NCBI GenBank assembly: GCA_044222845.1
Contig: JBGAMO010000004.1
Location: forward strand, 509 to 64,508
DNA: 64,000 bases
Source of the DNA: Phycisphaerales bacterium
Lineage (GTDB): Bacteria > Planctomycetota > Phycisphaerae > Phycisphaerales > UBA1924
Reading direction: 5' to 3'
The position numbers and the translations under genes were made by a program. Below the pieces are notes generated by a model. That model did no database searches. It worked only from the letters and a program-made list of their open reading frames with translations, and had not been told where the DNA came from. This document shows, in pieces, positions 20,003 to 40,058 of the stretch; position 1 is the stretch's first letter, and each line of letters starts with the position of its first letter.

Positions 20003-20144
20003 GCGGCGGGGCTCCAAGGGCGCGGCGTGCGCGCTCGGAGCGTGTATCGGTCGCAAGCAGGCGCGCCATCACGCCCGAGATTCGCGCGCGACAGGCCGGA
20101 CGCTCGCGCACGCCCGCGCAACCGACACAGACGGACCGGGATCG

Positions 20145-24386: not shown

Positions 24387-24590
24387 GGGTGGGCGGGGCT
24401 GTGGTCAGACCTCCTGCAGATCATACATCCCGGGGCGGCAACGTATTGCACCTGCGGGATGAGAGGAGGGCCGATGTGGATAGACGCGTGCTGCGGGGTG
24501 TGGCGCGCGGCGGAGAGGATTTTCACCGGGAGGGCGGGGGTGGGGAAAACCGGATCATCTTCCGCCTTGGAATTATCCGATACCCTTGCG

Positions 24591-26153
24591 ATGCCAACCG
24601 CCGCGCCCGTTCTGACGCCCGCACCGACCATCGCCGTGCCACGCTCGCAGTCCCGTCCATCTTCGGAGCAGTTCGACCCCGCGGGGAAGCACGCGTACTT
24701 CATCGGCATCGGCGGGTGCGGGATGTCGGGGCTGGCCCGGATGCTGCGGACGCGGGGGGCGGTGGTGAGCGGGTCGGACAAGGAGCAGTCCTGTGCCACG
24801 GACACGCTGAGCGCCGAGGGGATCGCGGTGGGGTTTGACCAGAGCAAGCAGTGGCTGCCGGAGGGGTGCGACTTTGTCGTGGCGTCGGCGGCGGTGAAGC
24901 CGGACCATCCGCAGATGCTGGAGGCGGAGCGGCGTGGGATTCCCATCTATCTATATGCCGAGGCGCTGGGCAAGAGCATGATCGGCAGCACGGGCGTGGC
25001 GGTGGCGGGGACGCACGGCAAGAGCACGACGACGGCGATGCTGGGGTGCGCCCTGACAGATGCCGGACTCGATCCGAGTGTGATCGTGGGAGCAACGAGC
25101 CATCAGTTGGTGAGCGGGTGTCTCAAACCGCTCGCGTCGGTCGCGGCGGGGTTCCGGCTGGGATCGCCGGTGATCCCCACCGGGGAGCAGGCGGGCCGGC
25201 CGGGTGTGCTGGTGGCGGAGGCGTGCGAGTACAACCGGTCGTTCCACAACTTCCGGCCGACGGTGGCGTGCATCAGCGGCGTGGAGGCGGACCATCTGGA
25301 TGTGTACGGGACGCTGGACGCGGTGGTGGAGAGCTTCCACGAGTTTGCGCAGTTGCTGCCGCCGGCGGCGGAGGGGGGCTACCTGCTGATCGGGCATGAC
25401 GGGGCGCACCGGCGCGAGGTGACGGCGGGGCTGGACTGCGCGGTGGAGACGATCGGGTTTTCTCCGGCGGCGGATTGGGTGGTGGGGTACGACGCTTCGA
25501 CGCGGGGCGTGACGATTTCACGCCGCGGACGGGTGGAGGCCAAGTGGACGAACACGGTGGCGGGTGCTCACAACGCGGTGAACGCGGCGAATGCGTTCGT
25601 GCTGGCGCGGCGGCTGGGGGCGGACCCCGAGCGGCTCGCGGCGAGCCTGTCGCGGTTCTCTGGGATTGATCGGCGGATGCAGTTGCTGGGCGAGCGGCCG
25701 GTGCCGGGGGGCACGGTGCGGGTGATCGATGACTACGGGCACCACCCCACCGAGATCGAGGTGACGCTGCGGGCGCTGCGCGAGGCCGAAGCGCCCGAGA
25801 AACGCGGGGGGCGGCTGATCTGCGTCTTCCAGCCGCACCAGCACAGCCGCACGCGGCACCTGCTCGAGGAGTTCGCCGCGAGCTTCTCGCACGCGGACGT
25901 GGTGATCGTGCCGCACATTTACTTCGTGCGCGACAGCCTGGAAGAGAAGCACAAGGTGACATCGGCGGACCTGGTGGACCGCCTGCGGGAGAAGGGCGTG
26001 CGGGCGATGCACCTGTACCCGTTCGAGGCGATCATCGAGCAGCTCGAGACGATGTGCCGCGCGGGCGAGGTGGTGGTGACGATGGGGGCTGGGGATGTGT
26101 GGAAGGTGGCGAAGGGGTATCTGGAGGCGGGGGAGGGGATGCCGCGTGGTTGA
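24591..26153 (+). CDS. murC: UDP-N-acetylmuramate--L-alanine ligase
   Basis: Internal ATG 24591. HAYFIGIGGCGMSGLARML, GTHGKSTTTAML and DDYGHHPTEI. Confidence 0.9.
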   Translation: MPTAAPVLTPAPTIAVPRSQSRPSSEQFDPAGKHAYFIGIGGCGMSGLARMLRTRGAVVSGSDKEQSCATDTLSAEGIAVGFDQSKQWLPEGCDFVVASAAVKPDHPQMLEAERRGIPIYLYAEALGKSMIGSTGVAVAGTHGKSTTTAMLGCALTDAGLDPSVIVGATSHQLVSGCLKPLASVAAGFRLGSPVIPTGEQAGRPGVLVAEACEYNRSFHNFRPTVACISGVEADHLDVYGTLDAVVESFHEFAQLLPPAAEGGYLLIGHDGAHRREVTAGLDCAVETIGFSPAADWVVGYDASTRGVTISRRGRVEAKWTNTVAGAHNAVNAANAFVLARRLGADPERLAASLSRFSGIDRRMQLLGERPVPGGTVRVIDDYGHHPTEIEVTLRALREAEAPEKRGGRLICVFQPHQHSRTRHLLEEFAASFSHADVVIVPHIYFVRDSLEEKHKVTSADLVDRLREKGVRAMHLYPFEAIIEQLETMCRAGEVVVTMGAGDVWKVAKGYLEAGEGMPRG

Positions 26154-26178
26154 TTGGGGGGGGAGGAAGCAGGGACTG

Positions 26179-26195
26179 GGCATCGGGCATCAGGG
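26179..26195. repeat. GGCATCG-GGCATCA-GGG heptamer motif
   Basis: The same 17-mer, ggcatcgggcatcaggg, occurs at 54780-54796. It lies 26 nt after the murC stop. Confidence 0.75.
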
Positions 26196-26235
26196 AAGCG
26201 GGACTCGGGGCTGGTCCCTGGGGGGGGTTGATGCG

Positions 26236-26312
26236 CGAGCGGGGGGTTGGGTCTTTGGTGCTTTGGGCTGTTGTGCATGGTCGACAGCGAGGTTGTTCGG
26301 GGCGGCGATGCC
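26236..26312 (-). mobile_element. diverged R1 (IS5-family 5'-end) fragment
   Basis: By-eye alignment of gcgagcggggggttgg..ggtgctttgggctgttgtgcatggtcgacagcgaggttgttcggggcggcgatgccacc to the 33095-33190 copy. The similarity is weak. Confidence 0.3.
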
Positions 26313-26457
26313 ACCAGCCGAACATCTACTGCAAACGCGCCAAGTCCCGCGGGGTTCGTTCACTTCACGCGCATCGTCGGCCCGCATGCCAGAAGCCGAC
26401 ATTGTTCAACTCCCGAGTTGCCCGCGTCGCTTGATGTGCGCAGAACGCAGCCGGGTG

Positions 26458-27285
26458 TCAGAGAGTATCGACATCAGAGGTCTTCTCATCTCCGCGGTTT
26501 CGCCCGGGCTCCACAAAGACGGCGACTTCAAGACACTTTCCGCACTCCGCACAAGTACTTCTGCCATCGCCGGCGGGGTAGCCGCAGTTCCAGCACTTGC
26601 CCACAAGCACTCGCCACCATGCGTGCAAACACGCCAACACTCCCACGCCAGCGGCGAGAGGCAGCCAAATCCTGGTGAGGAATAACCATAGCCCAAGAAA
26701 CGAAACTCGCCACGGCAGAGAAATAGTTCGAAGAAATGGAATACCAATATCAATAACATCAGCAGGCCCAGATACACCGTCTATGCTGAATACCTTGGAG
26801 TACATAAGGCGAAACGGAAAGCCATAATAATATATCGTGCATCCACCAGCTCCGGTTCGAAGGGCTGACTGCACTTCCGAAGGAAACACCGGGTCATAGG
26901 TCCAATGCTCCGAACGAAGTACACGCTCTAGATTCTTCTGGTGGCCGATCGTTTCGACTTCCTGCGGACACACAATGCCGTAATAGTCGTACAAATACTC
27001 GGAGTGCTTCTCGTAATACACACGGTCCTCTCGAACGACATAATGATAATTTGGGCCCTTGTCACCAGCCGATGCAGATATACAACACGTAATATACCCG
27101 GTCACCAATATGCCGATAAGCCACCAAAACTGATTTTTCAAAGCAACCGAGCAGGCCACGCGCCACCCGAGTGGTGTCGGCTTCGTGCGCCTGATTCTTT
27201 GAACGATCGCCAGAAGGTCAGATTTTAGTGCTCGCGCTCGTCGCATGGTGTTCCTGCGATGACATACTGAGTGATTCTGATCCAA
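26458..27285 (-). CDS. ZR1: low-GC membrane protein with C-terminal CxxCGY..CxxCG zinc ribbon (paralog of 29246-29848 and 32187-32798)
   Basis: N-terminal TM FWWLIGILVTGYI, motif YYGFPFRLMY, second TM LWLFLTRIWLPLAAGVGVLACL, then CWNCGYPAGDGRSTCAECG. The start may be the internal ATG 27246. Confidence 0.65.
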   Translation of the reverse strand: MDQNHSVCHRRNTMRRARALKSDLLAIVQRIRRTKPTPLGWRVACSVALKNQFWWLIGILVTGYITCCISASAGDKGPNYHYVVREDRVYYEKHSEYLYDYYGIVCPQEVETIGHQKNLERVLRSEHWTYDPVFPSEVQSALRTGAGGCTIYYYGFPFRLMYSKVFSIDGVSGPADVIDIGIPFLRTISLPWRVSFLGLWLFLTRIWLPLAAGVGVLACLHAWWRVLVGKCWNCGYPAGDGRSTCAECGKCLEVAVFVEPGRNRGDEKTSDVDTL

Positions 27286-27333
27286 TCTGAGGCATGTTCA
27301 AACATCAACAATTGGAGTTCGCTCTTCACGTTT

Positions 27334-27866
27334 AATTCGCCTTTGGAATCTCTGAATAACTGCGCAGCCGCGCCGAGTGAATGAGCGGATCCGGTGTGGG
27401 TCGGACGGCCGGGCATCGGGCAGGCGTGATCGTGGCGGTGCGAAGGAACGGATCGATGGGGGGTGCGGACGCGGCGTTGGCGGGGCTGGGCGGCCTGCGC
27501 TTGGCGGCATCGCTCACGCGGCTTTACGCGCTCGGACCCTGCGGCGACCTGGCCTTTGTCATGATGGCGGTGTTCAGTGGCGGCACCTGCACGGAGGTTC
27601 TGCGGGGTGTGTTGCCGCGGCTGTTGAGTGGGGTTGCTCGATGCGCTCCACCCGCGCGTGTGGCGGTGCGACGAGGCGCGGCGGCTTGTGGGCTTGCCGG
27701 CGCTGGTGGTGGAGATGGTGTGGCCCCGGTGCTTCATCCTTATCCGCCGCGATTGAACCGCCGCGCGGAGTGGGCGGCGGGGGTGGTGCTGGGTCAGCGT
27801 AGGGCGGGGGTGGGGTTCGTGAACGGGGCACGTGCCTCCCCAGGGCTAGGGGGGCATGCCACCCGG
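27334..27866 (-). repeat. module A: about 530-bp high-GC repeat carrying decayed RHS-core-end sequence
   Basis: Aligns along its whole length with 29860-30384, roughly 85-90% by eye, with 1-nt and about 5-nt indels. The right part (from ctggtggtggagatgg) is also shared with modules C, D and E. Confidence 0.75.
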
Positions 27867-27971
27867 CGTGGGCTGAACTGCTCCGCAGAACCGCGGACCA
27901 CCAGCATCGCAACGGCGCTTCCGATGCCAGCCGACGAAGAGGCGGCACCAACTCCGCATAGCGATGTCGTG

Positions 27972-28334
27972 CTAGCGATCTGTCTCTTGAACGGGACAAT
28001 ACACACTCCATTCCAGGCCCGGAAGCCGCTGGCCGACCAGAGAAACACAACGCACTCTGCGATCAAGTTTCTGATCACGCATCACGATCGTTGTTCGGCC
28101 AGAGGCAATTTCATCGCATGGCACCGAACACAAAACACTGCCGGTCTCATCGTAAAGCACGATGGTCACCTTGGTAAAGCGCCTGCCAGAGTTGACCGCA
28201 ACGATATCACCATTGACCACAGATAGATGCAGCGGACGGGTCGCGATCCACAGCACAGCGAACGACACCACCGCAAGAAGCAAAACTGCGATCAACACGT
28301 AGACGTAAACCATGTTTTTTCTGATTATCACCAT
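27972..28334 (-). CDS. small N-terminally anchored membrane protein, candidate immunity partner of the 28406-28783 tip
   Basis: 120-aa low-GC ORF. TM VYVYVLIAVLLLAVVSFAVLWIA. It lies 71 nt downstream of the RHS-tip ORF on the same strand. Confidence 0.5.
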   Translation of the reverse strand: MVIIRKNMVYVYVLIAVLLLAVVSFAVLWIATRPLHLSVVNGDIVAVNSGRRFTKVTIVLYDETGSVLCSVPCDEIASGRTTIVMRDQKLDRRVRCVSLVGQRLPGLEWSVYCPVQETDR

Positions 28335-28405
28335 TCAATTATGCGGCGAATAATGTCCAGCGGTGGCGGCACGCAAAACACCGCCATGCATGCAACCCAC
28401 GTTCC

Positions 28406-28783
28406 CTACCCCCGCATGAAACACATGCGGCTCACATTTCTGACGCAGTCATCATATGCAAAACACGCCAGTACGCAGCGCCCAGGCCCATGCGGACATT
28501 TAGTCAGAAAGAACCCAACTACATGATATGCAATACCGGAATGCCCCATAAAATCGCATTTGCATGTAGAGCCGAGTGACAGACCACTTTCATCGCTGTG
28601 CAAACCCGGAATAGAAGAGACGCATTCAAGCAAGTTCTTGCCATCCACATACCCCGCGGGATCCCTCCTCCCCCACCGATCCATCCCGGGAGGTAGCCTC
28701 GATGCCGCACACGATCTTGTCGGGTCGCGGGCGCCACTCGTGGCGAGCACGGTCCTTGCGGACACCCAAGCGGCTTCTGTCGA
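28406..28783 (-). pseudogene. orphan RHS C-terminal end plus 55-aa Cys-rich tip (degenerate)
   Basis: AASRLPPGMDRWGRRDPAGYVDGKNLLECVSSIPGLHSDESGL aligns with the canonical RHS core end ARYYDPxxGRWxxRDPIGYxDGxNLYxYVxxxPxxxxDPxGL. YY, LYEY and DPxGL are mutated. The sequence continues SLGSTCKCDFMGHSGIAYHVVGFFLTKCPHGPGRCVLACFAYDDCVRNVSRMCFMRG*. The frame is closed by TGA codons immediately upstream (about 28784 and 28840). Confidence 0.55.
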
Positions 28784-28807
28784 TCAATGCGTCGGCGTCC
28801 GCCCGCC

Positions 28808-29027
28808 GGTTCTGCGGGCTGTGCTGCCGCGGCTTCAGGGTGCGGTTGCTCGATGCGTTCGGCCCGCGCTTGTCGGGGTGCGACAAGGCGCGGCGGCGTG
28901 TGGGGTTGCCGGCGCTGGTGGTGGAGATGGTGTGGCCCCGGTCCTTCATCCTTATCCGGCGCGATTGAGCCGCCGCGCGGAGTGGGCGGCGGGGGTGGTG
29001 TTGGGTCAGCGTAGGGCGGAGGTGGGC
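28808..29027 (-). repeat. module C: partial copy of the high-GC module
   Basis: ggttctgcgggctgtgctgccgcgg...ctggtggtggagatggtgtggccccggtccttcatccttatccggcgcgattgagccgccgcgcggagtgggcggcgggggtggtgttgggtcagcgtagggcggaggtgg matches modules A and B. Confidence 0.65.
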
Positions 29028-29130
29028 AGGGGAGTTGTTGCGACTGGTGTGAGGCGGGTGGGGGCTGGAGGTTTGGAGTCGCTGATGCCGGGGGCGGCAG
29101 CCCCACTCCCGGCACCCCTCCGCTGTTGTG

Positions 29131-29200
29131 GGGCGGGGGCGGCTTTGTACGTTCGGCGTGGAGAATGTGCGGGGCGGCGACATGAGATGGAATGGATGCG
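29131..29200 (-). mobile_element. R1 (IS5-family 5'-end) fragment
   Basis: gggcgggggcggctttgtacgttcggcgtggagaatgtgcggggcggcgacatgagatgg parallels 33101-33175. The minus-strand translation IPSHVAAPHILHAERTKPP parallels IPVPSQVVALDDFDAERAIPP. Confidence 0.35.
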
Positions 29201-29245
29201 TGGATGCGACCCGGCGGTGGTACGGGGCCTTTGGATGCTATCCGC

Positions 29246-29848
29246 CTAACACCGATTGTTGCCACATTCAGGACACGTATCACTTCGATTACCTTCCAAC
29301 GAATATCCGCAATTAACACAGGCCGTGGCCCCGGTAAATAAATAGAAAATCCTGCGACACCGCTTTAGCAAGGTAAACCTCGCGATCGCCAGAATCGCCC
29401 ACTCAATCGTCCAAATGACCACCAGGGAAGCAGAGAATCGAAGGAAATCAATATTATGAGGAAGGAACCTCAAGCCGCCATCAACGGTCCTTTGCAACAC
29501 CTCACAGGATGAACCTTCTGCAACGGTGCTGTCCGAGAACAGCACAATCTGACATGAACGCCATCGAAACGGCCACCCGCTTGAGTAGGTAAACGCAGCA
29601 TGAAGTTCTGGAACATCAATCATCGAATCAACCGTGACATTATTATACATTGTCTCCAAACGACACTCATGCCAAAGCGTCAAACGACCAAGCCCGGTTG
29701 TGACGGTCCCGGGCGCCCCGATCAGCGAAAGCAGATCTTGACTTGAGATACCAATGGTCGGCGGTAAAATCGCGAGTTTTGTCGTTAGCAACACACCAAC
29801 TAGCGCCAATGCTAGATGAGTTATCGTCCGTTTAGACATACTGCACAC
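29246..29848 (-). CDS. ZR2: low-GC membrane protein with C-terminal zinc ribbon
   Basis: TM HLALALVGVLLTTKLAIL, motif SSGWPFRWRS, second TM FSASLVVIWTIEWAILAIARF, then CVNCGYSLEGNRSDTCPECG. Confidence 0.65.
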   Translation of the reverse strand: MCSMSKRTITHLALALVGVLLTTKLAILPPTIGISSQDLLSLIGAPGTVTTGLGRLTLWHECRLETMYNNVTVDSMIDVPELHAAFTYSSGWPFRWRSCQIVLFSDSTVAEGSSCEVLQRTVDGGLRFLPHNIDFLRFSASLVVIWTIEWAILAIARFTLLKRCRRIFYLFTGATACVNCGYSLEGNRSDTCPECGNNRC

Positions 29849-29859
29849 TCGCCAAACTC

Positions 29860-30384
29860 AATTGCGGGATTGGAATCTCTGAACAATTGCGCAGCCGCGG
29901 CGGGTAATTGGGCGCATCCGGTGTGGGCCGGACGGCAGGGCCTCGGGCAGGCGCGATCGTGGCGGTGCGGAAGAACGGATCGATGGGGGGGCGCGGCGTT
30001 GGCGGGGCTGGGCGGCCTGGGCTTGGCGGCGTTGCTCGCGCGGCTTGGCGCGATCGGACCATACGGAGACCTGGCCTTTGTCATGATGGCGGTGCTGAGT
30101 GGCGGCGCCTGCACGGAGGTTCTGCGGGGTGTGGTGCCGCGGGTGTTGAGTGGGGTTGCTCGATGCGTTCGGCTCGCGCGTTTGGGGGGCGACGGGGCGC
30201 GGCGGCTTGTGGGCTTGCCTGCTCTGGTGGTGGAGATGGTGTGGCCCCGGTCCTTCATCCTTATCCGCCGCGATTGAACCGCCGCGCGGAGTGGGCGGCG
30301 GGGGTGGTGCTGGGTCAGCGTAGGGCGGAGGTGGGGTGCGTGAACGGGGCACATGCCTTTCCAAAGCTGGAGGCTTGCCACACG
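29860..30384 (-). repeat. module B: about 525-bp high-GC repeat (see module A)
   Basis: See 27334-27866. Its decayed RHS-end frame (FFRTATIAPARGPAVRPTPDAPNYPPRLRNCSEIPIPQLS..V*) stops on tATGtcTAAa, overlapping the candidate ZR2 start. Confidence 0.75.
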
Positions 30385-30459
30385 CCGCTACGAAAAATCA
30401 ACCAAACTCTTCCAAGGCCTTCTCCACTTAGGATGCTCGATCATCTTGCTCAAACAGGT

Positions 30460-30969
30460 TTACGGATCGGCTCTAGGCAAATAATAAGGATCCATCCATT
30501 TCCATGGGGATATTTTTCCATTGGTTGTTGCTGAAGTGATTACTGATATGGCTTGTGTTTCGTCAACGGCCACACCTTGTTTCAGGCTCTGAGTATCAAT
30601 ATATCCAATTTTCCATATTGGACTACTTACGACTTTATATAGACCTGTCGAGGAGGAATTCGGTGCTACTACTTTTAGATCACAAAAACGTACGAGCACG
30701 AAGCGATTGTCAATCACCGCGACTTCCTTAATATCAATCCCCACAAACAGCTGCGAGAGTTGGATCGCAGATCGCGGGGGCTGAATTTGACAACCAAAAG
30801 GGTCAATCTTGATGATTTGGAAACCATTAGGCAGCTGGCGATTCCACTCAGTCGGGCGAGCACAGCTGCAAATGCAAGCCACGATCATGATGGCGACGCC
30901 GCGAACAATCGCCATTGTGTTACATCGAGTTATTTGTGTGCGCATCCTTGTTTGCATCATTTTATCCAT
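30460..30969 (-). CDS. low-GC putative lipoprotein
   Basis: 169-aa ORF with an internal signal/lipobox-like MAIVRGVAIMIVACICSC. I recognise no family. An AT-rich tract follows at 30970-31170. Confidence 0.45.
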   Translation of the reverse strand: MDKMMQTRMRTQITRCNTMAIVRGVAIMIVACICSCARPTEWNRQLPNGFQIIKIDPFGCQIQPPRSAIQLSQLFVGIDIKEVAVIDNRFVLVRFCDLKVVAPNSSSTGLYKVVSSPIWKIGYIDTQSLKQGVAVDETQAISVITSATTNGKISPWKWMDPYYLPRADP

Positions 30970-31113
30970 GTTTACTGCAGTCGAGTCATTGTAAAGTATA
31001 GTTTATCATAATGACTATTTGCGATGCAACCCGCTCCGATGTCATTTTATTTGTTTTGATTTTGAGTGTTCCGAGTTCACTTGAACAAGTCCCACGAGGC
31101 TTTGAGTTGGGCG

Positions 31114-31455
31114 CTATTCACTTGCTGAATAAACTGTGCAAATCTGGTTCATAAACTGGCAAGAATAAACCGCCGTTTCGTCCGCCGAGTCGCAGACGCC
31201 GTCTGTGTTCATGTCCCCCGCGGCGTACACCGTCGGCTCCCCGTACGGGCTGTACCGCACGTACTCGATCGGCAGCCCCGTGCTGCCCACTACCGCCGCC
31301 ACATCCGCCCGCCAGTTCGGAAGGAAGTACTGCCGCACCTCCAGCGCGCCGTCGCTCAAAGAGTCCCGCCCGCCCGTGTGGTCGTACGACGAACCCGGGT
31401 GGCCCGTGGGCCCGCCGAGACTGGTGCTGGAGATGGAACTGCCCCGGTCCTTCAT
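31114..31455 (-). pseudogene. RHS-core-end-like fragment D, truncated by a low-GC junction
   Basis: MKDRGSSISSTSLGGPTGHPGSSYDHTGGRDSLSDGALEVRQYFLPNWRADVAAVVGSTGLPIEYVRYSPYGEPTVYAAGDMNTDGVCDSADETA. Codon GC3 then collapses (VYSCQFMNQICTVYSASE*). The pattern Y..(H)..(D)..GS...l.d..G..ve.Y.Y.PYGE is that of the RHS-associated core. Confidence 0.55.
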
Positions 31456-31582
31456 CCTTGTCCGCCGCGATTGAGCCGCCGCGGGGTGGGCGGCGGGGAG
31501 TGGTGCTGGGTCAGCGTAGGGCGCGGGTGGGGTGCGTGAACGGGGCACATGCCTCCCCAAAGCTGGAGGCATGCCACCCGGC
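31171..31582 (-). repeat. module D (tandem with module E)
   Basis: About 90% identical by eye to 31723-32133. It ends with a perfect hairpin, catgcctcc-ccaaagct-ggaggcatg. Confidence 0.75.
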
Positions 31583-31584
31583 GA

Positions 31585-32007
31585 CTATCGCGGGAAACAG
31601 ATTAATACGGATTCACACTCAAACTCGCGCGAAGAAGAAGTAGGGCGTGTAGAAGGGGAAGGCCGACGGGGACCGTCGGGCCACCCACGGACGCCCGTGG
31701 TCGAGTTCTGCAGATCATCCCACGCCGTTTCGTCCGCCGAGTCGCAGACGCCGTCTGCGTTCATGTCCCCCGCGGCGTACACCGTCGGCTCCCCGTACGG
31801 GCTGTACCGCACGCACTCGATCGGCACCCCCTTGCTGTCGATCACCGCCACCACGTCCGCACGCCAGTTCTGCAGGAAGTACTGCCGCGTCTCCAGATCG
31901 CCGTCGCCCAAAGAGTTCCACCCGCCCGTGTGGTCGTACGACGAACCCGGGTGGCCCGTGGGCTCGCCGACACTGGTGCTGGAGATGGAACTGCCCCGGT
32001 CCTTCAT
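31585..32007 (-). pseudogene. RHS-core-end-like fragment E with EF-hand/dockerin-like continuation
   Basis: ...YDHTGGWNSLGDGDLETRQYFLQNWRADVVAVIDSKGVPIECVRYSPYGEPTVYAAGDMNADGVCDSADETAWDDLQNSTTG..., then a low-complexity tail running through the 31661-31686 palindrome. Confidence 0.55.
31661..31686. repeat. 25-nt palindromic element (copy 2)
   Basis: ggccgacggggaccgtcgggccaccc. See 17609-17634. Confidence 0.7.
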
Positions 32008-32180
32008 CCTTGTCCGCTGCGATTGAGCCGCCGCGGAGTGGGCGGCGGGGGGTGGTGCTGGGTCAGCGTAGGTCGGGGGTGGGGTGCGTGAACGGGGCAC
32101 ATGCCTCCCCAAAGCTGGAGGCATGCCACCCGGCGCAGTGCTCCCATGTCTCCCCGGGGCCGGAGGCATGCCACCCGCCG
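31723..32180 (-). repeat. module E plus an extra duplicated half-hairpin
   Basis: See module D. A second hairpin copy, atgtctcc-ccggggcc-ggaggcat, lies at about 32146-32176, directly after the ZR3 stop. Confidence 0.7.
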
Positions 32181-32186
32181 CAAAGC

Positions 32187-32798
32187 TCAACGATGATCTC
32201 GGCGGGTGGTTTGTCCGCATTCGGGGCAGACTCCGGTTTGGCTGCGCATCGGATAGCAGCACACTTCACAGAGATGACGGCGCCGTCGCAAGGCGATTCT
32301 GCCGAATCGAAAGCCGGTGATGGACACGAAGTACACGCCGACCCACACGACGACACACAGAAGCAATCGCGGCCACTCGATGTCTACGGGGAAGATCCGC
32401 ACCCTTGCGAAGTCCGACGGGTGGGTGACGACGCCACTCTTGGGAAGGCCGCTGCTGATGAACGCGCCGTCGCGGCTTCCCACGAGATGATATTTCAGGC
32501 ATCGAATTGGGAAACCAAATGTCCTCGTTATCTTAATGATCTCAGGTGGCGCCTTTACGCCATACCCGTGGTTCACATCCCAGTTTCGGTAGATGTCCTC
32601 GCTGCGGGTTCCGCTGGACGCGAACGAACCCACTTCCGTTTGTGTCGTCCACCTGCCGATGGTTGTTGCGGCACCCACGGGCTGGTCGCCATGCAGGTCA
32701 GCCCGAATGATAACTCCCACGATCAGTGCGACGGTGAGTGCGGACATCGGGACCAGATACGCGATGGTGACGAGCGTTCGTGTGATCGATGGTCGCAT
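32187..32798 (-). CDS. ZR3: low-GC membrane protein with C-terminal zinc ribbon
   Basis: Internal ATG 32798 gives MRPSITRTLVTIAYLVPMSALTVALIVGVII. Motif TFGFPIRCLK, second TM LLLCVVVWVGVYFVSITGF, then CEVCCYPMRSQTGVCPECG. Confidence 0.65.
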   Translation of the reverse strand: MRPSITRTLVTIAYLVPMSALTVALIVGVIIRADLHGDQPVGAATTIGRWTTQTEVGSFASSGTRSEDIYRNWDVNHGYGVKAPPEIIKITRTFGFPIRCLKYHLVGSRDGAFISSGLPKSGVVTHPSDFARVRIFPVDIEWPRLLLCVVVWVGVYFVSITGFRFGRIALRRRRHLCEVCCYPMRSQTGVCPECGQTTRRDHR

Positions 32799-33043
32799 GC
32801 TGGTTTGGCCTGTTATGCAAGGACCTTCTGCGCGATGATGCGGCCACGGCGGGCGCTTGATCGTACCTAGTTGGAGTTGGCTGATCAGCCTGTGCGAGGA
32901 CGAGATTGTGCAAAGGGGGATACGGCGAGTTGCGGGTTTGCGCTTTGGGGGGCGGCGACGGTGCTCCGAGGTCGCTGAGGAATGGAGTGAGGGAGCGCGA
33001 GAGGAGAAGCCCATGGACTGCGGTCCATGGGTTTTCGGGGTGA

Positions 33044-33262
33044 TGCGGTGTTGCTGCGTGCCATCCCGGACTTCGCTGCGCAGAGCCTGCGCTCAGTCCG
33101 GGCGTCGGGGGTTTGGTGCTTCGGGTGGTATTGCACGTTCGGCATCGAAGTCGTCCAGGGCGACGACTTGCGATGGCACGGGGATGGTGGTTGCGTGTTT
33201 CTCCCACACTTCCAACCACTTGTGCCGCGCTGTGCCTTCACTCGGGTTGGATTCGGTCGGCG
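33044..33262 (-). mobile_element. R1: longest solo IS5-family 5'-end fragment
   Basis: 33044-33110 match 2306-2385, the part contiguous with the transposase remnant. 33095-33200 match nt 1-108. One minus-strand frame reads ..HKWLEVWEKHATTIPVPSQVVALDDFDAERAIPPEAPNPRRPD*, compatible with a decayed L.D..WE.I.PLLP....GRP transposase N-terminus. Confidence 0.45.
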
Positions 33263-33263
33263 C

Positions 33264-34796
33264 CTACGCGTTCATGTCGCTCCAGCGTCTGGCCATGCGG
33301 CCGAAGACCCAGAGGCCGATGGTGGAGACCACGCCAACGAGGGCGAAGGGGATCCAGACGTAGTAGTGTGGGGAGTAGGTGTCCCAGAGCAACTGGATCG
33401 CGGCATCGGGGCCGAGGTTTGTGGTCTCCATGAGCTTGGCGAAGGCCTGGGGGCGGTCGACGCCCAAGAGGGCGTCGAGTTTGGCGGGGTCGTGGTTCCA
33501 GACCTTGCCTTCGCCGAGTTTGGTGTGCTGGAGCAGGTACTTCTGGGCGAGGACAGCGCGTTCGCCGAAGTGGCCGTAGAGGTAACCGGCGATCTTGGAG
33601 CCGATGAAAACGCCCACGCCCACGGGGATGTTGACGTACCCCAGGTACAGGCCCTTCTTGCCCGGGGGGGCGATGAGGGCGAGGTACTCGCTCTTCTTGG
33701 GACCGGTGGTCATTTCGCCCAGCGAGAAGCAGAGGATGCCCAGGAGCAGGAACCAGACGCTCATGGTCCAGCCGGCGATGAGGATGCCCATGGTGGCCAG
33801 GACCATGCCGAAGAGCATGGCGCTGAGGGTGCGCATCTTGCGGGTGAGCCAGGACATGCCGACGACGCCGACGATGATGCAGAAGGAGTTGAGGGAGAGC
33901 AGTACCTGCTGGGGGATCTGCAGGCCGCGGGGCGTTTCTTCGGTGACTTTGGTGAAGACTGCGTCGGGGAGCCAGCGGATGGAATCGACCAGGGGCGTGC
34001 TGTTGACCCAGTCGCGGATGAAGTTGGGGTGCAGGTCCCAGAGTTGGTACATCATCAGCCAGAAGCCGGACATGATGGCGAGCCAGGCGAGGAGGCGCGG
34101 CTCGGCGATGCTCACGACGGTGCGCTTGAGCACTCCGATCACCGACTCGCGCTTGTCGGCTCCGCTGGGGACATCCTTGAACGTGAAGAGCATCACGAGG
34201 TTGAGGGCGGTGAAGGCGGCGGAGGCGATGAAGAGGTTGCGCCAACTGGCAGCGGAGTGATCGCGCGTGAGGAGCAGGCCGGGGAGGTAGTGGCCGACGA
34301 ACGCGCCGACATTCACGACCCAGTAGAAGATGCCCCAGCCGACGGAGGAGTTGGACTTGTCGAGGTTCTGGGCGAGGGAGCCCTGGATGCTGGGCTTGAA
34401 GAAGGCGGTGCCCGTGGCCAGGACCATGATGGCGGTGAAGAGGGCCCAGAAGTTGCTGACGCCGGGGATGTCGCGCATGAAGGCGATCATGAGGTAGCCG
34501 ATCATCATGAGGACGATCGAGAAACCCAGCACCTTCTTGTAGCCGTAGCGGTCGGCGAAGCCGCCGGTGACGATGGGCAGGAGGCTCTGGAAGACGGCCC
34601 ACCAGGCGTAGATGGTGCCCTTGTTGGCGGCGGTCAGGTGCAGGCCGCCGGGGTCGTCGGCCTGCATGATGTAGATGGGGGCCATGACGCGCAGGTTGTA
34701 ATACGCGAGGCGCTCCCACATCTCGATGGTGTTGAGCATCCAGAAGGAGCTCGCGAAACGGGTCTTGGCCGGCGACGGGGTGGCGGGGTCGGGCAT
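33264..34796 (-). CDS. POT/PTR2-family peptide:proton symporter (MFS)
   Basis: Internal ATG 34796. FWMLNTIEMWERLAYYNLRVMAPIY and GGFADRYGYKKVL (POT signatures), with about 14 TM segments. Confidence 0.9.
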   Translation of the reverse strand: MPDPATPSPAKTRFASSFWMLNTIEMWERLAYYNLRVMAPIYIMQADDPGGLHLTAANKGTIYAWWAVFQSLLPIVTGGFADRYGYKKVLGFSIVLMMIGYLMIAFMRDIPGVSNFWALFTAIMVLATGTAFFKPSIQGSLAQNLDKSNSSVGWGIFYWVVNVGAFVGHYLPGLLLTRDHSAASWRNLFIASAAFTALNLVMLFTFKDVPSGADKRESVIGVLKRTVVSIAEPRLLAWLAIMSGFWLMMYQLWDLHPNFIRDWVNSTPLVDSIRWLPDAVFTKVTEETPRGLQIPQQVLLSLNSFCIIVGVVGMSWLTRKMRTLSAMLFGMVLATMGILIAGWTMSVWFLLLGILCFSLGEMTTGPKKSEYLALIAPPGKKGLYLGYVNIPVGVGVFIGSKIAGYLYGHFGERAVLAQKYLLQHTKLGEGKVWNHDPAKLDALLGVDRPQAFAKLMETTNLGPDAAIQLLWDTYSPHYYVWIPFALVGVVSTIGLWVFGRMARRWSDMNA

Positions 34797-34834
34797 TGGG
34801 CCCAGTGTAGCGGAATGGGGGCGGCGGGCCGGGC

Positions 34835-35776
34835 TCAGGGGGCCCAGCGGACCTGCGCGGTGACGGCCCAATGGTCGCTGGGGAACCTGCCCTCAAAGGT
34901 GCGACGGTCGATCGCGGCATCGAGGATTTGGGTGCCGCGGCGGACGAAGATGTAGTCGATCTTGTCGGGGCCGACGGACTTGCCGAAGCCCTGGAAGGTG
35001 CCGACGTTCTTTTCATCGGGGAACGTGGAACGGAAGGTGTCGACGAGTTTGGGCGATTCGACCGGGGTGGGGGCGGGGGGGGGGGTTGGGTCGTCGGCGG
35101 CGCGGGCGGCCTCGCCCTTGAGGTAGCGGATGGCGTTGCTGGATTCGCCGCAGTTGAAGTCGCCGGTCAGGATGACGGGGGCTGCACCGGCGTGCTCGGC
35201 GATGTGGCGGGCGATGGCTTGTGCGGACCGGCGGCGGGCGGGCTCGCTGCGGTGGTCGAGGTGGGTGTTGTAGACCCAGACGGAGCCGCCCTGGGCGATG
35301 GTGAACTTGGCGAAGGTGAAGATGCGGGGGATGTCGTTTCCCCAGGACTTGGAGCCGGGGGTGTCGGGCGTGTCGGAGAGCCAGCGGGTGCCGCGGGTGG
35401 CGGGATCGGGGTCGAGGGTGAGGCGGCCGGTGTGATAGAGGATGGGGGAAAACTCGCCGGCGTCCTTGCCGTCGTCGCGGCCGACGCCGAAGACGGCGAG
35501 TCGGCCCTTGGAGGATTCGACGATCTCATCAATCTGGAACCTCAGGGCTTCCTGGAGGCCGACGATGTCGTAGGGGTGCTCGTTCACGAGGCGGAAGACC
35601 AGGTCCTTGCGCTTGGGCCAGGCGTGGTCGCCATCGTCGGCGGTGCCGTAGCGGATGTTGAAGGTCATGATGCGCAGGTCTGTCGGCGGCGCGGCGGGGG
35701 GTGCTGGGTTTGTCGGGGGTTGGGTGCAGGCGGCGAGGAGAAGCACCAGCGGCAGAAGGTGGAGCGCGGCGAGCAT
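34835..35776 (-). CDS. endonuclease/exonuclease/phosphatase (EEP) family lipoprotein
   Basis: Lipobox LLLAAC. RIMTFNIRYG, IVGLQEA, NTHLDH, GDFN and SDHWAV are the EEP catalytic motifs. Confidence 0.85.
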   Translation of the reverse strand: MLAALHLLPLVLLLAACTQPPTNPAPPAAPPTDLRIMTFNIRYGTADDGDHAWPKRKDLVFRLVNEHPYDIVGLQEALRFQIDEIVESSKGRLAVFGVGRDDGKDAGEFSPILYHTGRLTLDPDPATRGTRWLSDTPDTPGSKSWGNDIPRIFTFAKFTIAQGGSVWVYNTHLDHRSEPARRRSAQAIARHIAEHAGAAPVILTGDFNCGESSNAIRYLKGEAARAADDPTPPPAPTPVESPKLVDTFRSTFPDEKNVGTFQGFGKSVGPDKIDYIFVRRGTQILDAAIDRRTFEGRFPSDHWAVTAQVRWAP

Positions 35777-36928: not shown

Positions 36929-37320
36929 ACTCGGCGGGGCCCCGCGCTGGTTGGTGAATGCAGGGAATAGGTCGCCGCGGTTCGTTATCGAACCACGTTT
37001 GGCGCGATCGCGGGGGATCGCGGCGCGGCGGAGGCGGCGTTACGGGGACGCAGGCCGGGGCCGCGGGAACGCTGTGGGTTGGCACGATCGGCGTGGCGTC
37101 GCAGCCGCGGTCGGCTTCGATCTGCCCGTTGGGCACGCAGGACAATTCGGTAGAGTCCGCCGGGACGGTGACTTCGTGGCAGTGGCAGTGGCGCTTCCAG
37201 GGCGCGGCCCCCTGGAACGGCAAAATCTACAATGGCGGCGGGAAACGGACTTTTTACCGCGTTGCACCACCCATCGCCGATACTCCCGCCGTGATCGCAC
37301 CCTTGCTCAACGCACCGGCC

Positions 37321-38211
37321 ATGCAGTATGAACGCCACGCCGCGATCCCCACCTGGTTCAAGGTCGGGGGCGGCGCGGATCGGTTTGCGCGCGTGAGCGA
37401 CAGCGGGCAACTGCTGGTGTGCCTGCGGGATGATCCGGACCTGCTGATCCTGGGCGACGGGGCGAACCTGCTGGTGGATGATGACGGCGTGGACCGGCTA
37501 GTGGTATCGCTGGCGGGGCTCAACGAGTGCCGGTGGGACATTTCGACGGGGCTGCTGACGGTGGGGGCGGGCGTGAACCTGCCGAAACTGATCACACAGA
37601 CGGTGCGGGATGGGTTGGGCGGGCTGGAGGTGCTGGCGGGGATCCCGGCGACGGTGGGCGGGGCGCTGGTGATGAACGCCGGGGGAGCGTTCGGGCAGAT
37701 CGCGGATGTGGTGCACCGGGTCTTCGCGGTGTCGCGGGAGGGGCGGGAGATCGCGCTCTCGCGGGCGGAGATTCCGTATTCATACCGGCACAGCGGGCTG
37801 GGTGGTCTGATCATCACCGGGGCGGAGCTGCGGCTGACGCTGGGGGACCCGGCGGCGCTGCGGGAGCGGCTCAAGGAAGTGATGGCGTACAAGAAGAAGA
37901 GCCAGCCGATGGGGGACAACTCGGCGGGGTGCTGCTTCAAGAACCCCACGCTGGGCACGGATGTGGCGGGGATCGGCGCGGCGGGGCAGCGGGTGTCGGC
38001 GGGGATGGTGATCGACAAGGCCGGGTGCAAGGGGATGCGGATCCGCACCGCCGAGGTGAGCGAGGTTCACGGCAACTTCCTGACGGCGGATGAGGGGGGC
38101 AAGGCGCGGGATGTGATCGAGTTGATGGAGGCGGTGGAGAAGCGGGTGATGGAGCGGTTCGGGATGAGGTTGGAGCGGGAGGTGGTGGTGTGGCGGCGGG
38201 GGATGAGGTAA
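37321..38211 (+). CDS. murB: UDP-N-acetylenolpyruvoylglucosamine reductase
   Basis: Internal ATG 37321. WFKVGGGADRF, ILGDGANLLV, AGIPATVGGALVMNAGG, YRHS and GCCFKNP. Confidence 0.85.
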   Translation: MQYERHAAIPTWFKVGGGADRFARVSDSGQLLVCLRDDPDLLILGDGANLLVDDDGVDRLVVSLAGLNECRWDISTGLLTVGAGVNLPKLITQTVRDGLGGLEVLAGIPATVGGALVMNAGGAFGQIADVVHRVFAVSREGREIALSRAEIPYSYRHSGLGGLIITGAELRLTLGDPAALRERLKEVMAYKKKSQPMGDNSAGCCFKNPTLGTDVAGIGAAGQRVSAGMVIDKAGCKGMRIRTAEVSEVHGNFLTADEGGKARDVIELMEAVEKRVMERFGMRLEREVVVWRRGMR

Positions 38212-38223
38212 CACGGGCGCGGG

Positions 38224-39852
38224 ATGGAACTGACTTTCGATCAACTGCAACAGTTGCTTCACTTGCCAGAAAGCGAACATCTGGAGTTCAAGGAAGCCAA
38301 GCGTGATTTCAGCTTCGACCGGCTGCTTTGTTACGGCGCGGCCTTGGCGAACGAGGGGGGAGGCACGCTCGTTCTTGGTGTTGGAGATCGCCGACCCCGC
38401 AAAGTGCTTGGATCAGCGGCGTTCCAGGATCTCGTCAAGACGCGGGCCAACCTCACTCGGGAGCTGCAGTTGCGGGTCGAGGCGTGCGAGATGGATCACG
38501 CAGATGGCCGGGTGGTCATTTTCAAGTTTCCGCCAAGACCGATCGGGCGGCCGATCAGGATCAAGGGGGTGTACTGGACACGTCGGGGCGAAGAGCTGAC
38601 GGCCATGACCGAGGATGCGTTACACGAAGCATTGATGGAGGCGTGCACCGATTTCTCGGCATTGCCGTGTCGTGGCGCAACGGACCAAGACCTTTCGCCG
38701 TCGGCGATCGCGGCATTTCGGGCCGCGTGGCACCGAAAGACGGACAATTCGACGATCGCGACCGCGCCGGTTCGGCAACTTCTTCGTGACGCGGAACTTC
38801 TGGCGGATGGCGTGCCCAACTTTGCGGCGTTGGTCGTCATGGGCAAAGGCGAGTCGCTGGGCAGGCTGCTGCCACAGGTCGAGTTCGTGTACGAGTATCG
38901 GTCGAATGAAAGTTCGATTTCGTACCAGCAACGGCAGGAGTTCCGCGATGGATTTCTGAACTTTGCGGACACGATCTGGAACCTGATCAACCTTCGGAAC
39001 GACATACAGCAGGTACGGGACGGGTTGTACATGAGTGACATCCGCACCTTCAATGAAGTGGTGGTGCGAGAGTGCCTTCTGAACGCCATGTGCCACCGTG
39101 ATTACCAGTCACCCGGGTCGGTGTTCGTACGTCAGTATCCCCAACGGCTGGACATCGTGAGCCCGGGAGGGTTGCCCAAGGGGATTACACCGGAGAACAT
39201 CGTGTTCCGGCAGTCTCCCAGAAATCGGCGTATCGCCGAAACACTGGCGCGATGCGGATTGGTCGAGCGCTCGGGGCAAGGCGCCGACCGAGTTTTTTCG
39301 GAGACGATCCGCGAGGGCAAGGCGGTCCCGGACTTCGCGAACACCGACGCCCAACAGGTTTCAATTTCGCTGCGCGGAGAAGTGACCGATCCGGTCTTCG
39401 TTCATTTCCTTCGTCGTTTGCAGGAAATGCGCGGCGAGGCGCTCTCGGCCAATGACTACATGGCGCTCGATTTGCTCCGTCGGAATCAACAGTTACCCCC
39501 GGAGCTACAGCAAAGCCTGCCTAGGCTCTCGCGATGCGGCGCGATAGAAGCGATTGGCCGCGGCAAGGGCACACGGTACATTTTGGCCAAGGACCTTTAC
39601 CGGGCGCTGGGCAATCCCGGTGCGTACACGCGTGAACGCGGACTGGATCATGAAACGCAGAAACAACTCCTGCTCAAACACATCCGCGACAATGCGGAGT
39701 ATGGCAGTCCACTGCGGGAGTTGCAGCAAGTGCTTCCGCACGTTGGCCGACGTTCGGTTCAACGTCTGGTGGCCGAGCTTCGGGACGAAGGGTTCATTAC
39801 GGTGCGCGGTAAGACCAATACGGCCATGTGGCTACCAAAGGAAGATCGCTGA
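38224..39852 (+). CDS. AlbA_2/Schlafen-type DNA-binding domain protein with ATPase-like and wHTH C-terminal parts
   Basis: LPESEHLEFKEAKRDFSFDRLLCYGAALANEGGGTLVLGV (AlbA_2 signature), NAMCHRDYQSPGSVFVRQYPQRLDIVSPGGLP (HATPase_c_4-like), and a C-terminal wHTH-like SVQRLVAELRDEGFI. GC is lower than in murB and ddl. Confidence 0.75.
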   Translation: MELTFDQLQQLLHLPESEHLEFKEAKRDFSFDRLLCYGAALANEGGGTLVLGVGDRRPRKVLGSAAFQDLVKTRANLTRELQLRVEACEMDHADGRVVIFKFPPRPIGRPIRIKGVYWTRRGEELTAMTEDALHEALMEACTDFSALPCRGATDQDLSPSAIAAFRAAWHRKTDNSTIATAPVRQLLRDAELLADGVPNFAALVVMGKGESLGRLLPQVEFVYEYRSNESSISYQQRQEFRDGFLNFADTIWNLINLRNDIQQVRDGLYMSDIRTFNEVVVRECLLNAMCHRDYQSPGSVFVRQYPQRLDIVSPGGLPKGITPENIVFRQSPRNRRIAETLARCGLVERSGQGADRVFSETIREGKAVPDFANTDAQQVSISLRGEVTDPVFVHFLRRLQEMRGEALSANDYMALDLLRRNQQLPPELQQSLPRLSRCGAIEAIGRGKGTRYILAKDLYRALGNPGAYTRERGLDHETQKQLLLKHIRDNAEYGSPLRELQQVLPHVGRRSVQRLVAELRDEGFITVRGKTNTAMWLPKEDR

Positions 39853-39880
39853 CGCCCCGGTCACATACCAAACAGGCTGT

Positions 39881-39920
39881 CGCAAGTTGGCGCGAGTTGG
39901 CGCAAGTTGGCGCAAGTTGG
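39881..39920 (+). repeat. 4 x 10-bp perfect-phase tandem repeat CGCRAGTTGG
   Basis: cgcaagttgg cgcgagttgg cgcaagttgg cgcaagttgg, read directly from the sequence. It lies 29 nt after the 38224-39852 stop and 139 nt before the ddl start. Confidence 0.9.
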
Positions 39921-40058
39921 CCGACGAACAGAACTCTGATGGGAGCCGACAAACAGTCTTGAATTGCCGAAGATGACCACTGATGGTGAGCATGGTTCGA
40001 AGACCAAGCGACGAATACTGAGTTGTCGCAAGATCACCCTGAATTGCTGAACACACCC

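Follow-up and report, generated by a model that had tools for sequence, protein, structure and literature searches.

The 64,000-nt window analyzed here (contig JBGAMO010000004.1 of a Phycisphaerales bacterium; all the coordinates given below are positions in this window) carries downstream of murC an island of about 7 kb, shown at 26154-33262, in which five high-GC modules, A to E, all located on the minus strand, alternate with five low-GC genes encoding three zinc-ribbon membrane proteins (ZR1, ZR2, and ZR3), a lipoprotein-like protein and a small transmembrane (TM) protein. This island is probably a decaying array of orphan Rhs/YD-type polymorphic-toxin 3' cassettes and their partner genes, which occupies a hypervariable site and is now mainly an immunity island. 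The evidence demonstrated below consists of the repeat anatomy of the array, its Rhs/YD homology, the decay of its toxin parts, the turnover of its content between two genomes, and the occurrence of ZR genes directly after Rhs-type toxin open reading frames (ORFs) elsewhere. All five toxin parts in the window look dead, A and B being scrambled, C carrying two frameshifts and D and E being truncated before the tip, and the five partner genes are intact.

A direct-repeat search identified a 234-nt family with five members (27581-27814, 28793-29026, 30102-30335, 31299-31532, and 31851-32084), within which A/B and D/E form longer and closer sub-pairs showing 88-92% identity. The motifs CGCCCTACGCTGACCCAGCACCAC and GGATAAGGATGAAGGACCGGGGC occur exactly five times each when up to three mismatches are allowed, always on the minus strand within 27.7-32.1 kb; neither was found anywhere else in the 64 kb, the expectation in shuffled sequences being 0.00. 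Read along the minus strand, the order is ZR3, E, D, the lipoprotein-like gene, B, ZR2, a fragment of a dispersed repeat plus C, the TM gene, A, and ZR1. The GC content is 0.65-0.72 in the modules vs. 0.42-0.55 in the genes between them, and the third-position GC of these genes (0.44-0.67) is so far below that of the flanking kinase and POT genes (0.87-0.93) that their composition is foreign to this genome. The original prediction, made from the sequence alone, had described the repeats and their shared stretch, the gene order and the contrast in composition, and the repeat and ORF maps bear it out in all these respects. Core remnants were identified in all five modules, and a partner ORF follows A, B, C, and D, E running directly into D; the window array therefore has the retained core-coding fragment, the variable end and the small partner ORF of an orphan array. 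A scan of 25.5-34 kb against Rfam yielded nothing at E ≤ 1, and the window proteins were found to be singletons by exact look-up.

Module C (28406-29041, minus strand) is a pseudogene composed of a head shared with the other modules, an Rhs-associated core end distributed over three frames, and a 57-aa Cys-rich tip. In tblastn comparisons it maps onto the intact module proteins of a related metagenome-assembled genome (MAG), Planctomycetota bacterium SZAS-3 (JAFEBP01), in three successive frames (28949-28732, 28731-28687, and 28690-28406), and the frameshift-corrected sequence matches positions 23-76 of the TIGR03696 (Rhs_assc_core) profile with 21.2 bits (E = 3e-4). Because of this three-frame mapping and of the match obtained with the stitched sequence, module C is, judging from the alignments, a twice-frameshifted Rhs core end with a Cys-rich tip. 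It reads RRDPAGYVDGKNLLECVSSIPGLHSDESGL, with DESGL where the DPxG(L/M) autoproteolysis motif is expected after ...DPxGxxDGxNLYxYV..., and ends ...RRDPAGYVDGKNLLECVSS..DESGL before the tip; the same position is occupied by ...TDSSGL in SZAS-3 and mostly by DPxG in the metagenome relatives. Scanning species-representative genomes with a 21-mer of the head brought up the SZAS-3 copies: contig 2 holds them in an island, contig 23 at its end, and contig 24 at its start. A Deinococcus locus (L005) that came up in the same scan with a single 21-mer match was discarded. The SZAS-3 ORFs starting at the head ATG are intact and match TIGR03696 at 37.4, 46.1, and 46.3 bits, above the curated cutoff of 32.5 bits, and these intact modules align to the extreme C-terminal core end of the Rhs shells of YenC2 and TccC3. 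The frameshifted core end predicted in module C was therefore recovered below the cutoff in the corrected sequence and above it in its SZAS-3 counterparts, but not in any ORF or frame of the window in its uncorrected state.

Modules D (31114-31600) and E (31585-32190), both on the minus strand, are derived from a YD-repeat protein, to judge by their translations. Module D comprises a hairpin, the head, and an ORF starting with the ATG at 31455, which encodes the last YD-type repeat (RQYFLPNWRADV...YSPYGEP) and half of a dockerin-like repeat, the dockerin match being weak, and is truncated without a tip. Module E is a tandem duplicate of D (92% identical over 300 nt; 85% in the tblastn comparison), which is preceded by two copies of the hairpin and ends slightly later in the dockerin linker. 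The first 40 or so residues of both show 62-71% identity to the SZAS-3 modules, and are followed by RQYFL(P/Q)NWRADV...YSPYGEP and the half dockerin-like repeat. Module E shows 46% identity over 70 aa (E = 1e-18) to the last YD repeat and dockerin region of a protein of at least 1035 aa encoded by a metagenome contig (locus L006), which carries YD repeats (TIGR01643) and a GC-type dockerin. The modules keep at most one or two YD-like repeats (SSYDHTGG..., RQYFLPNWRADV...YSPYGEP), and no YD-repeat shell was found upstream of the core end in the window. The substitutions between D and E show no third-position excess and are located mostly at first and second codon positions.

Modules A (27343-27870) and B (29870-30395), also on the minus strand, are more degraded. 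Module A consists of a hairpin, a head of about 130 nt with its ATG at 27737, about 50 degenerate Rhs-like codons, and a decayed tail of about 260 nt; module B, which is 87-89% identical to A, has its ATG at 30258 and likewise ends in a decayed tail. The recognizable coding sequence is limited to the 50 or so codons reading MK(D/H)RGHTISTTSAGKPT... plus a degenerate RQHTPQNLRA, and module A shows 62% identity to the first 32 aa of the SZAS-3 module proteins (tblastn). A peptide read in each of the two modules, FFRTATIAPARGPAVRPTPD...CSEIP (FFRTATIAP...CSEIP), had been put forward as an Rhs core end, which had to be rejected: neither module matches any RHS model, 1-nt and 5-nt indels separate the two copies of the shared tail, and the 30-odd substitutions between them show neither a third-position excess nor any codon-position bias. 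A membrane-like plus-strand frame in the same tails (GGAALAGLGGLGLAALLARLG...FVMMAV) was rejected as a gene as well: the 5-nt indel that separates A from B interrupts it, its ORF enters the opposite-strand TM gene, the substitutions show no periodicity, and no homologues were found.

A motif-based scan of metagenomes identified 44 loci belonging to a single toxin family. These proteins are composed of YD repeats, a stretch reading GHGGSSYID...RHYYAQNWRADV...Y(S/R)AYG, two dockerin-like repeats, the core end GNRKGYAGYE...GRWTRRDPxGYVDG...DPxG, and diverse Cys-rich tips. Repeats of this dockerin-like type (C.DFN.DGG.DG.D...F...W) also occur in the window at the C-termini of native secreted FG-GAP/Ig and Kelch/Ig proteins (7677-7831, 10327-10400, and 43282-43355); in the toxins, this type of repeat precedes the Rhs core end. 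Long YD-repeat N-terminal parts are present in L006, L016, L021, and L035; in many other loci NWRADV is preceded by just 40-150 aa of ORF, and these are therefore orphan modules. In L021 the parent toxin gene is followed by an orphan module, and L015 (6388-13571) carries four consecutive intact orphan modules of about 450-530 aa spaced about 2 kb apart, all opening at the same core position (NGLGHRIMWQYDDD...) and hence sharing the same 5' boundary, with a small gene after each; L015 is a well-preserved counterpart of the window array. Contigs from different samples can be 98% identical up to the core end and diverge just downstream of it. With its orphan modules, its arrays and its divergence after the core end, this family matches the behavior of textbook polymorphic toxins. 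The most conserved coding tract of the family is the core remnant GHPGSSY...NWRADV. A word-indexed protein search with the module D ORF returned almost only the query genome.

These relatives and the corrected module C support the prediction that the modules are displaced 3' ends of polymorphic toxins lying beside partner genes, most of the tips having been lost. In the ancestral cassette, a short piece of sequence coding for the toxin core (GHPGSSY...QNWRADV...), with dockerin-like repeats or lacking them, would have been followed by the Rhs core end (...GRWGRRDPxGYVDG...DxSGL), a variable Cys-rich tip, and the cognate immunity gene. If the modules were instead a lineage-specific dispersed non-coding repeat of the repetitive extragenic palindromic (REP) or miniature inverted-repeat transposable element (MITE) kind, acting as a promoter or terminator, their likeness to Rhs would be accidental and the intervening genes would simply encode accessory membrane proteins with no relation to toxin defense. 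The window ORFs do lack matches to the RHS hidden Markov models (HMMs), other REP-like repeats are located at the cassette borders, and native-GC zinc-ribbon membrane paralogues occur elsewhere in the window. This explanation is nonetheless already largely refuted, and we regard it as extremely improbable, in view of the TIGR03696 matches of the SZAS-3 modules at the curated threshold, the 46% identity of module E to a YD-repeat protein, the restriction of the head to the island and to the SZAS-3 cassette arrays, and the ZR genes lying beside toxin ORFs, with full-length members in at least three independent contigs and variants in five more.

The three ZR genes are all on the minus strand. 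ZR1 (26458-27246; third-position GC 0.54) encodes a protein with two TM helices flanking an ecto-domain that carries a GFPFR motif, and with a CxxCGY...CxECG zinc ribbon at the C-terminus; ZR2 (29246-29839) gave only weak zinc-ribbon and rubredoxin-like domain matches; and ZR3 (32187-32798) lies in an ORF that is open to 33014, the likely start being the M at 32798. All three are candidate immunity genes. Although the three proteins show only 24-32% pairwise identity, they have the same architecture: an N-terminal TM helix, an ecto-domain of about 100-150 aa ending in G(F/W)P(F/I)R, a second TM helix, a basic stretch, and CxxCGYxxxx...CPECG. In the AlphaFold2 (AF2) model of ZR3, two confident helices surround a poorly modeled beta region. 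An HMM was built from ZR sequences (ZR1, itself included in the model, scores 132 bits). Word-indexed searches with the ZR alignment and with a 40-member ZR alignment recovered little beyond the query genome or the alignment members; an exhaustive HMMER search was used instead, and the family was found to have 582 representatives at E ≤ 1e-3, many of which are 190-260 aa long, with a match that runs from the GWPFRC motif as far as the zinc ribbon. No Pfam or NCBIfam body domain was found for the ZR proteins, nor any Pfam domain beyond sub-threshold zinc ribbons in 40 representatives, and none of the five partner genes of the island matches the profile of a described immunity family (Imm1-74, SUKH, SuFu, and others in Pfam). 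Three tandem paralogues of native GC content located outside the island (44394-47357, plus strand; 289-359 aa) have a zinc ribbon of the CxxCGY...CPECG type near the N-terminus followed by TM segments; they match the ZR HMM weakly and contain repeat families D5, D7, D12, D15, and D16. The zinc-ribbon membrane theme thus extends beyond the island.

The genomic context was determined for two family members, P0018 and P0071, and for the toxin loci. A gap of 4 nt separates the stop codon of the YD-repeat toxin of L006 from the start of P0018, and P0071 comes after an ORF ending ...RDPLGYIDSPNLSAYALSAPTSHLDPLGK plus a Cys-rich tip. When the ZR HMM was run over the 2,409 ORFs of the collected loci, another full-length member was found directly after the toxin ORF in L042, as well as members in L022 and in the SZAS-3 arrays, and ZR3 itself matched ZR genes in L006, L011, L013, L022, and L042 (tblastn). 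Full-length relatives therefore lie immediately after toxin ORFs in three independent contigs (L006, L011, and L042), and variants with TM segments and a zinc ribbon do so in L013, L022, L028, L032, and L053. Since their relatives are located directly downstream of Rhs-type toxin ORFs, their position supports an immunity role for the ZR proteins, which form a candidate immunity family; the claim that they are an undescribed family in immunity position is upheld. The topology of the ZR proteins and the Cys-rich tips suggest that neutralization would occur outside the cytoplasm. Among the partner genes, homologues beside cognate toxins elsewhere, as expected of polyimmunity, were found for the ZR family only.

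The two remaining partner genes, neither of which has a significant Pfam or NCBIfam family match, encode a lipoprotein-like secreted protein of 169 aa (30460-30969, minus strand; third-position GC 0.44), a candidate immunity protein, and a TM protein of 120 aa (27972-28334, minus strand; third-position GC 0.59), which has an N-terminal TM helix and occupies the partner position for the tip of module C. The lipoprotein-like cassette is common to both genomes (window 30385-30986 vs. L004 6293-6894, 95% nucleotide identity), and in SZAS-3 it is located in the contig-2 island, which is not the one at the murC site, behind a module of a different type. Its ratio of nonsynonymous to synonymous substitution rates (dN/dS) is 0.25 vs. 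SZAS-3, which indicates that this gene, the only partner gene testable in this way, is under purifying selection; a sigma-70-like site was found before it at 31017-30988. The 3' end of the cassette overlaps in antisense a C-terminal remnant of an IS5-like DDE transposase (30353-30484, plus strand; ...RYEKSTKLFQG.LHLGCSIILLKQVY), which belongs to the block shared with SZAS-3. The longer SZAS-3 version (L004 5934-6392, plus strand) matches PF13586 (DDE_Tnp_1_2) with E = 2e-4 and 22 bits, below the cutoff, and this remnant hints that insertion sequences were involved in the movement of cassettes.

The head is a block of about 130 nt (CCCACCCCCGCCCTACGCTGACCC...GGATAAGGATGAAGGACCGGGGCCACACCATCTCCACCACCAG..GGCAAGCCCAC) common to 11 copies in the two genomes and is far better conserved than the coding remnant that follows it. 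Its conserved ATG is in frame with Rhs-like sequence in 11 of the 11 copies. The region upstream of the ATG is non-coding, since the copies differ there by indels of +1, -2, and +3 nt, and the head is not Rhs coding sequence, the relatives reading ...KELFVNHQAGLAGHGGSSY at the corresponding place. Two alternative contexts are found upstream of it, one of which includes a GGCATGCCTCC...GGAGGCATGTGCC hairpin. Within the window the head is confined to the island, and within SZAS-3 to the cassette arrays, where in one case a deletion has fused it to the last 130 nt or so of the A/B tail, before a ZR gene. A pattern scan of the Joint Genome Institute (JGI) metagenomes gave 0 matches, and blastn of the heads against 46 related loci gave none; the head is therefore lineage-specific. 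It has no Rfam match, it folds no more stably than shuffled sequences (z = -1.35), and no sigma-70-like site was found in any copy. A G-quadruplex or attC-like role, which had been considered from the sequence alone, was dropped as unsupportable in a genome with 68% GC.

The conserved ATG raises the question of whether the modules are live stand-alone toxin-antitoxin-like units, translated from the head and acting inside the producing cell together with the downstream gene. A 268-aa ORF starting at this ATG is indeed intact in SZAS-3 (L012 13402-14208, in the region 12593-14208 on contig 2): it encodes the core end and a Cys-rich tip (residues about 126-268) with CCVCT and VHEAVH (HExxH-like) motifs, which it has in common with the tip of the full-length L006 toxin (28% identity, E = 7e-4), and it is followed by a gene for a 222-aa Cys-rich protein that is not a ZR protein. 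In the window, none of the five modules encodes the core end and the tip in one frame, the substitutions show no coding constraint, and the heads lack a sigma-70-like site; the Cys-rich tips and the membrane or exported partners point, besides, to action outside the cytoplasm. We therefore consider such live units improbable. The 268-aa module and its 222-aa neighbor, like the L006 tip and P0018, make up concrete candidate toxin-immunity pairs.

The identical 5' junction of all the modules would also be expected if the island were an integron-like or rAID-like cassette system (rAID, recombinase-associated acquired interbacterial defense), the head being a site-specific recombination site for a dedicated recombinase. 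The co-directional low-GC genes are split by repetitive intergenic sequences, as in the rAID-1 of Bacteroidales (10.1101/471110), and the head contains a short inverted repeat (CCGCCGC ... GCGGCGG). The loop of this repeat varies from 7 to 9 nt among the copies, however, and given its unremarkable fold and lack of an Rfam match the head does not qualify as attC-like; the scan of ORFs on both sides of the island, which did not take in every small ORF, yielded no integrase and no tyrosine recombinase (XerD-like or IntI). The breakpoints are scattered, being located at 30385 and 30986 in the case of the lipoprotein-like cassette and after the core end in the metagenome alleles, and the pattern therefore fits homologous recombination. 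A dedicated site-specific system is thus quite unlikely. On the reading of the island as a decaying orphan array, the simplest scenario is that a single ancestral fusion of the head to the core remnant was followed by duplication and by cassette replacement through homologous recombination, the repeated head and core remnant providing shared homology for the duplication, deletion, and swapping of cassettes.

It is possible, by analogy with the orphan Rhs of Salmonella (PMC7043789), that the head serves as a promoter plus start codon. We put forward two linked claims as a tentative proposal, more doubtful than otherwise: that the ZR proteins are a widespread undescribed immunity family, and that the uniform head with its start codon is a functional cassette adaptor. 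With their GWPFRC ecto-domain and a cytoplasmic CxxCGYxLxG...CPECG ribbon, the ZR proteins may be directed against the extracytoplasmic Cys-rich tips of dockerin-bearing Rhs-type toxins in Planctomycetota, and the head may provide a handle for recombination along with a promoter and a start codon. If this were true, the adaptor would shuffle cassettes among chromosomal islands with neither an adjacent parent gene nor a recombinase, as a homologous-recombination analogue of an integron.

The island is bordered on the left by murC (24561-26153, plus strand; Pfam Mur_ligase, Mur_ligase_M, and Mur_ligase_C) and on the right by a POT/MFS transporter gene (33264-34871, minus strand; MFS_1 and PTR2), which is followed by an EEP-family gene (Exo_endo_phos), murB (MurB_C), and ddl. 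SZAS-3 contig 24 matches the murC/kinase flank at 93% identity (L003 3183-8000 vs. window 26251-21397). Synteny stops exactly at 26251, and beyond this point SZAS-3 has heads and then unrelated genes encoding proteins of 335, 128, 144, and 239 aa. By this comparison, the island is a fast-evolving cassette site at which SZAS-3 holds different cassettes. The genes murC, murB, and ddl (24561-26153 and 36958-40970) are separated by the island, the transporter gene, the EEP-family gene, a 357-aa ORF without an assigned function, and a Schlafen/AlbA_2-HATPase_c_4 gene (38224-39852). REP-like repeats, which form a family distinct from the head, are located at the left edge of the island (26242-26309, families D7/D8), at its right edge (33044-33181, D7/D8 and D8/D17), and between ZR2 and module C (29122-29195, D8; the "R1 fragment"). 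The copies of this family in the window (23-82, 2311-2378, 26250-26309, 29122-29181, and 33044-33181, including 33108-33167) mark the island borders and the ZR2/C junction and occur far outside the island as well; in SZAS-3 they form long tandem runs beside the arrays (L001, about 3750-4900; L002, about 900-1700). A separate repeat of about 170 nt, 80-82% identical between copies, is found near a beta-helix gene in the window (16959-17137) and in both SZAS-3 cassette islands (L003 2003-2172 and L004 4186-4364). A type II secretion/type IV pilus-like cluster (10977-20056), located 6-15 kb to the left of the island, encodes T2SSE, T2SSF, two N-methyl pilin-like proteins, and a 960-aa ORF without any Pfam match.

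No parent rhs gene, large YD gene, PAAR gene or VgrG gene was identified in the window, in which no ORF exceeds 1071 aa, nor was any tRNA gene. Immediately upstream of the array there is no full-length rhs gene, the sequence upstream of module E consisting of ZR3, the REP-like repeats and the transporter gene, and the SZAS-3 arrays lack an adjacent parent too. The absence of a parent rhs, YD or PAAR gene from the window, with the transporter gene next, agrees with the original prediction; it is less unusual than was implied there, because metagenomes abound in orphan modules of this family. One might suppose that the array is a silent cassette store feeding a full-length rhs/YD gene elsewhere by gene conversion, in which case the toxin parts would be no less important than the immunity genes. 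Recombination with the main rhs gene is known to mobilize orphan modules (PMC3967940; discussed in PMC7043789), the GHPGSSY...NWRADV remnant is the most conserved coding tract of the family, and one intact module survives in SZAS-3. Against this, the window holds no intact tip to donate, except possibly the 57-aa tip of module C behind its two frameshifts, and the sequences examined do not include a parent gene, which makes a silent store very unlikely.

Arrays of orphan rhs-CT/rhsI and cdiA-CT/cdiI modules form by C-terminal displacement (Poole et al. 2011, PMC3150448; Koskiniemi et al. 2014, PMC3967940). Like these, the window contains tandem 3' toxin fragments with a conserved core piece and a small partner gene after each, the tip and partner have a lower GC content than the core, and the content varies between close relatives. 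Unlike them, it has no full-length rhs gene upstream, all its toxin parts are truncated or frameshifted, its orphans share one 5' junction to an identical non-coding head instead of having event-specific junctions, its parent family has dockerin-like repeats placed after the last YD repeat and before the core end, and the host is a planctomycete with no type VI secretion system (T6SS) genes in view. Polyimmunity loci are heterogeneous clusters of immunity genes without adjacent functional toxins, which have been proposed to provide pre-emptive defense against changing toxin repertoires (Zhang et al. 2012, PMC3482391); the window likewise has a heterogeneous cluster of immunity-type genes without adjacent functional toxins, but none of its five genes matches a described Imm, SUKH or SuFu Pfam family, and toxin remnants are visible between the genes. 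The rAID-1 of Bacteroidales are arrays of orphan immunity genes with skewed GC, repetitive intergenic sequences, and a 5' XerD-like recombinase (Ross et al. 2019, 10.1101/471110). The window array resembles them in its orphan immunity-type genes, its skewed GC and its repetitive intergenic sequences, and differs from them in having no XerD-like recombinase, in its repeats, which are Rhs-core remnants plus head and not integron-like motifs, and in its host phylum and toxin delivery system. In Salmonella, main and orphan Rhs-CT/RhsI act as internally expressed type II toxin-antitoxin modules (PMC7043789); the ATG-bearing head could play the part of the start codon and upstream sequence of the orphan Rhs, but the window copies cannot encode a toxin. 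As in the Rhs/Tc toxins YenC2 and TccC3 (TIGR03696), the core end GxxGxExDxxTGxxxxRxRxYxPxxGRWxxxDPxGxxDGxNLYxYV...DPxG(L/M) is found in the SZAS-3 modules and, in degraded form, in module C. Unlike those toxins, the modules contain only the last 70-110 residues or so and no shell, and therefore neither encapsulation nor autoproteolysis is to be expected. The array thus resembles orphan rhs-CT, polyimmunity, and AID/rAID-1 loci, yet departs from them as regards the parent gene, the recombinase, the Imm family and the TIGR03696 cutoff. The choice offered by the original prediction, "an immunity-only island or something new", is best settled in favor of an immunity island, a kind of locus already described (PMC3482391; 10.1101/471110); as this type of array is known, the unusual features are just the candidate ZR immunity family and the lineage-specific uniform head.

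Several observations weigh against the interpretation of the island as a decaying orphan array with immunity genes. No ORF or frame of the window as it stands matches an RHS model, even at E ≤ 1, and the score of the corrected module C is below the curated cutoff. The same non-coding head stands before all the modules, a uniformity that simple displacement leaves unexplained, and in SZAS-3 the head sits directly before non-Rhs genes. The last 130 nt or so of the A/B tail are 71-88% conserved directly upstream of three ZR genes (window 27343-27470, window 29870-29990, and SZAS-3 L001 3437-3590) that are only about 25% identical to one another; the SZAS-3 copy carries a 6-nt in-frame indel, and no copy of the tail was found before ZR3 or before either the lipoprotein-like or the TM gene. 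The conservation of this tail, which may represent a leader, a promoter or what is left of a common toxin tip, is puzzling. We infer the putative immunity role of the partner genes from their position and from selection, and for the lipoprotein-like and TM genes no toxin-adjacent homologue was found. The ZR ecto-domain was not modeled confidently (mean predicted local distance difference test score, pLDDT, of 54 in the AF2 model of ZR3). A parent rhs gene may exist elsewhere in the genome, beyond the window. Lastly, the contig belongs to a MAG, so that the frameshifts in module C or the order of the array could be assembly artifacts, and the SZAS-3 arrays are interrupted by N gaps.

To our knowledge, contact-dependent antagonism has hardly been studied in Planctomycetota. 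The array suggests that Rhs-type conflict leaves the same scars in this phylum as in proteobacteria and Bacteroidales, namely orphan cassettes, immunity-only islands, and fast turnover at a fixed site. It also accounts for the many frameshifted, high-GC pseudo-ORFs of the island, which is of use for annotation. The membrane-anchored or exported proteins encoded by the island would neutralize extracytoplasmic Rhs-type toxins delivered by related neighbors, and the candidate immunity family to which the ZR proteins belong spans hundreds of sequence clusters.

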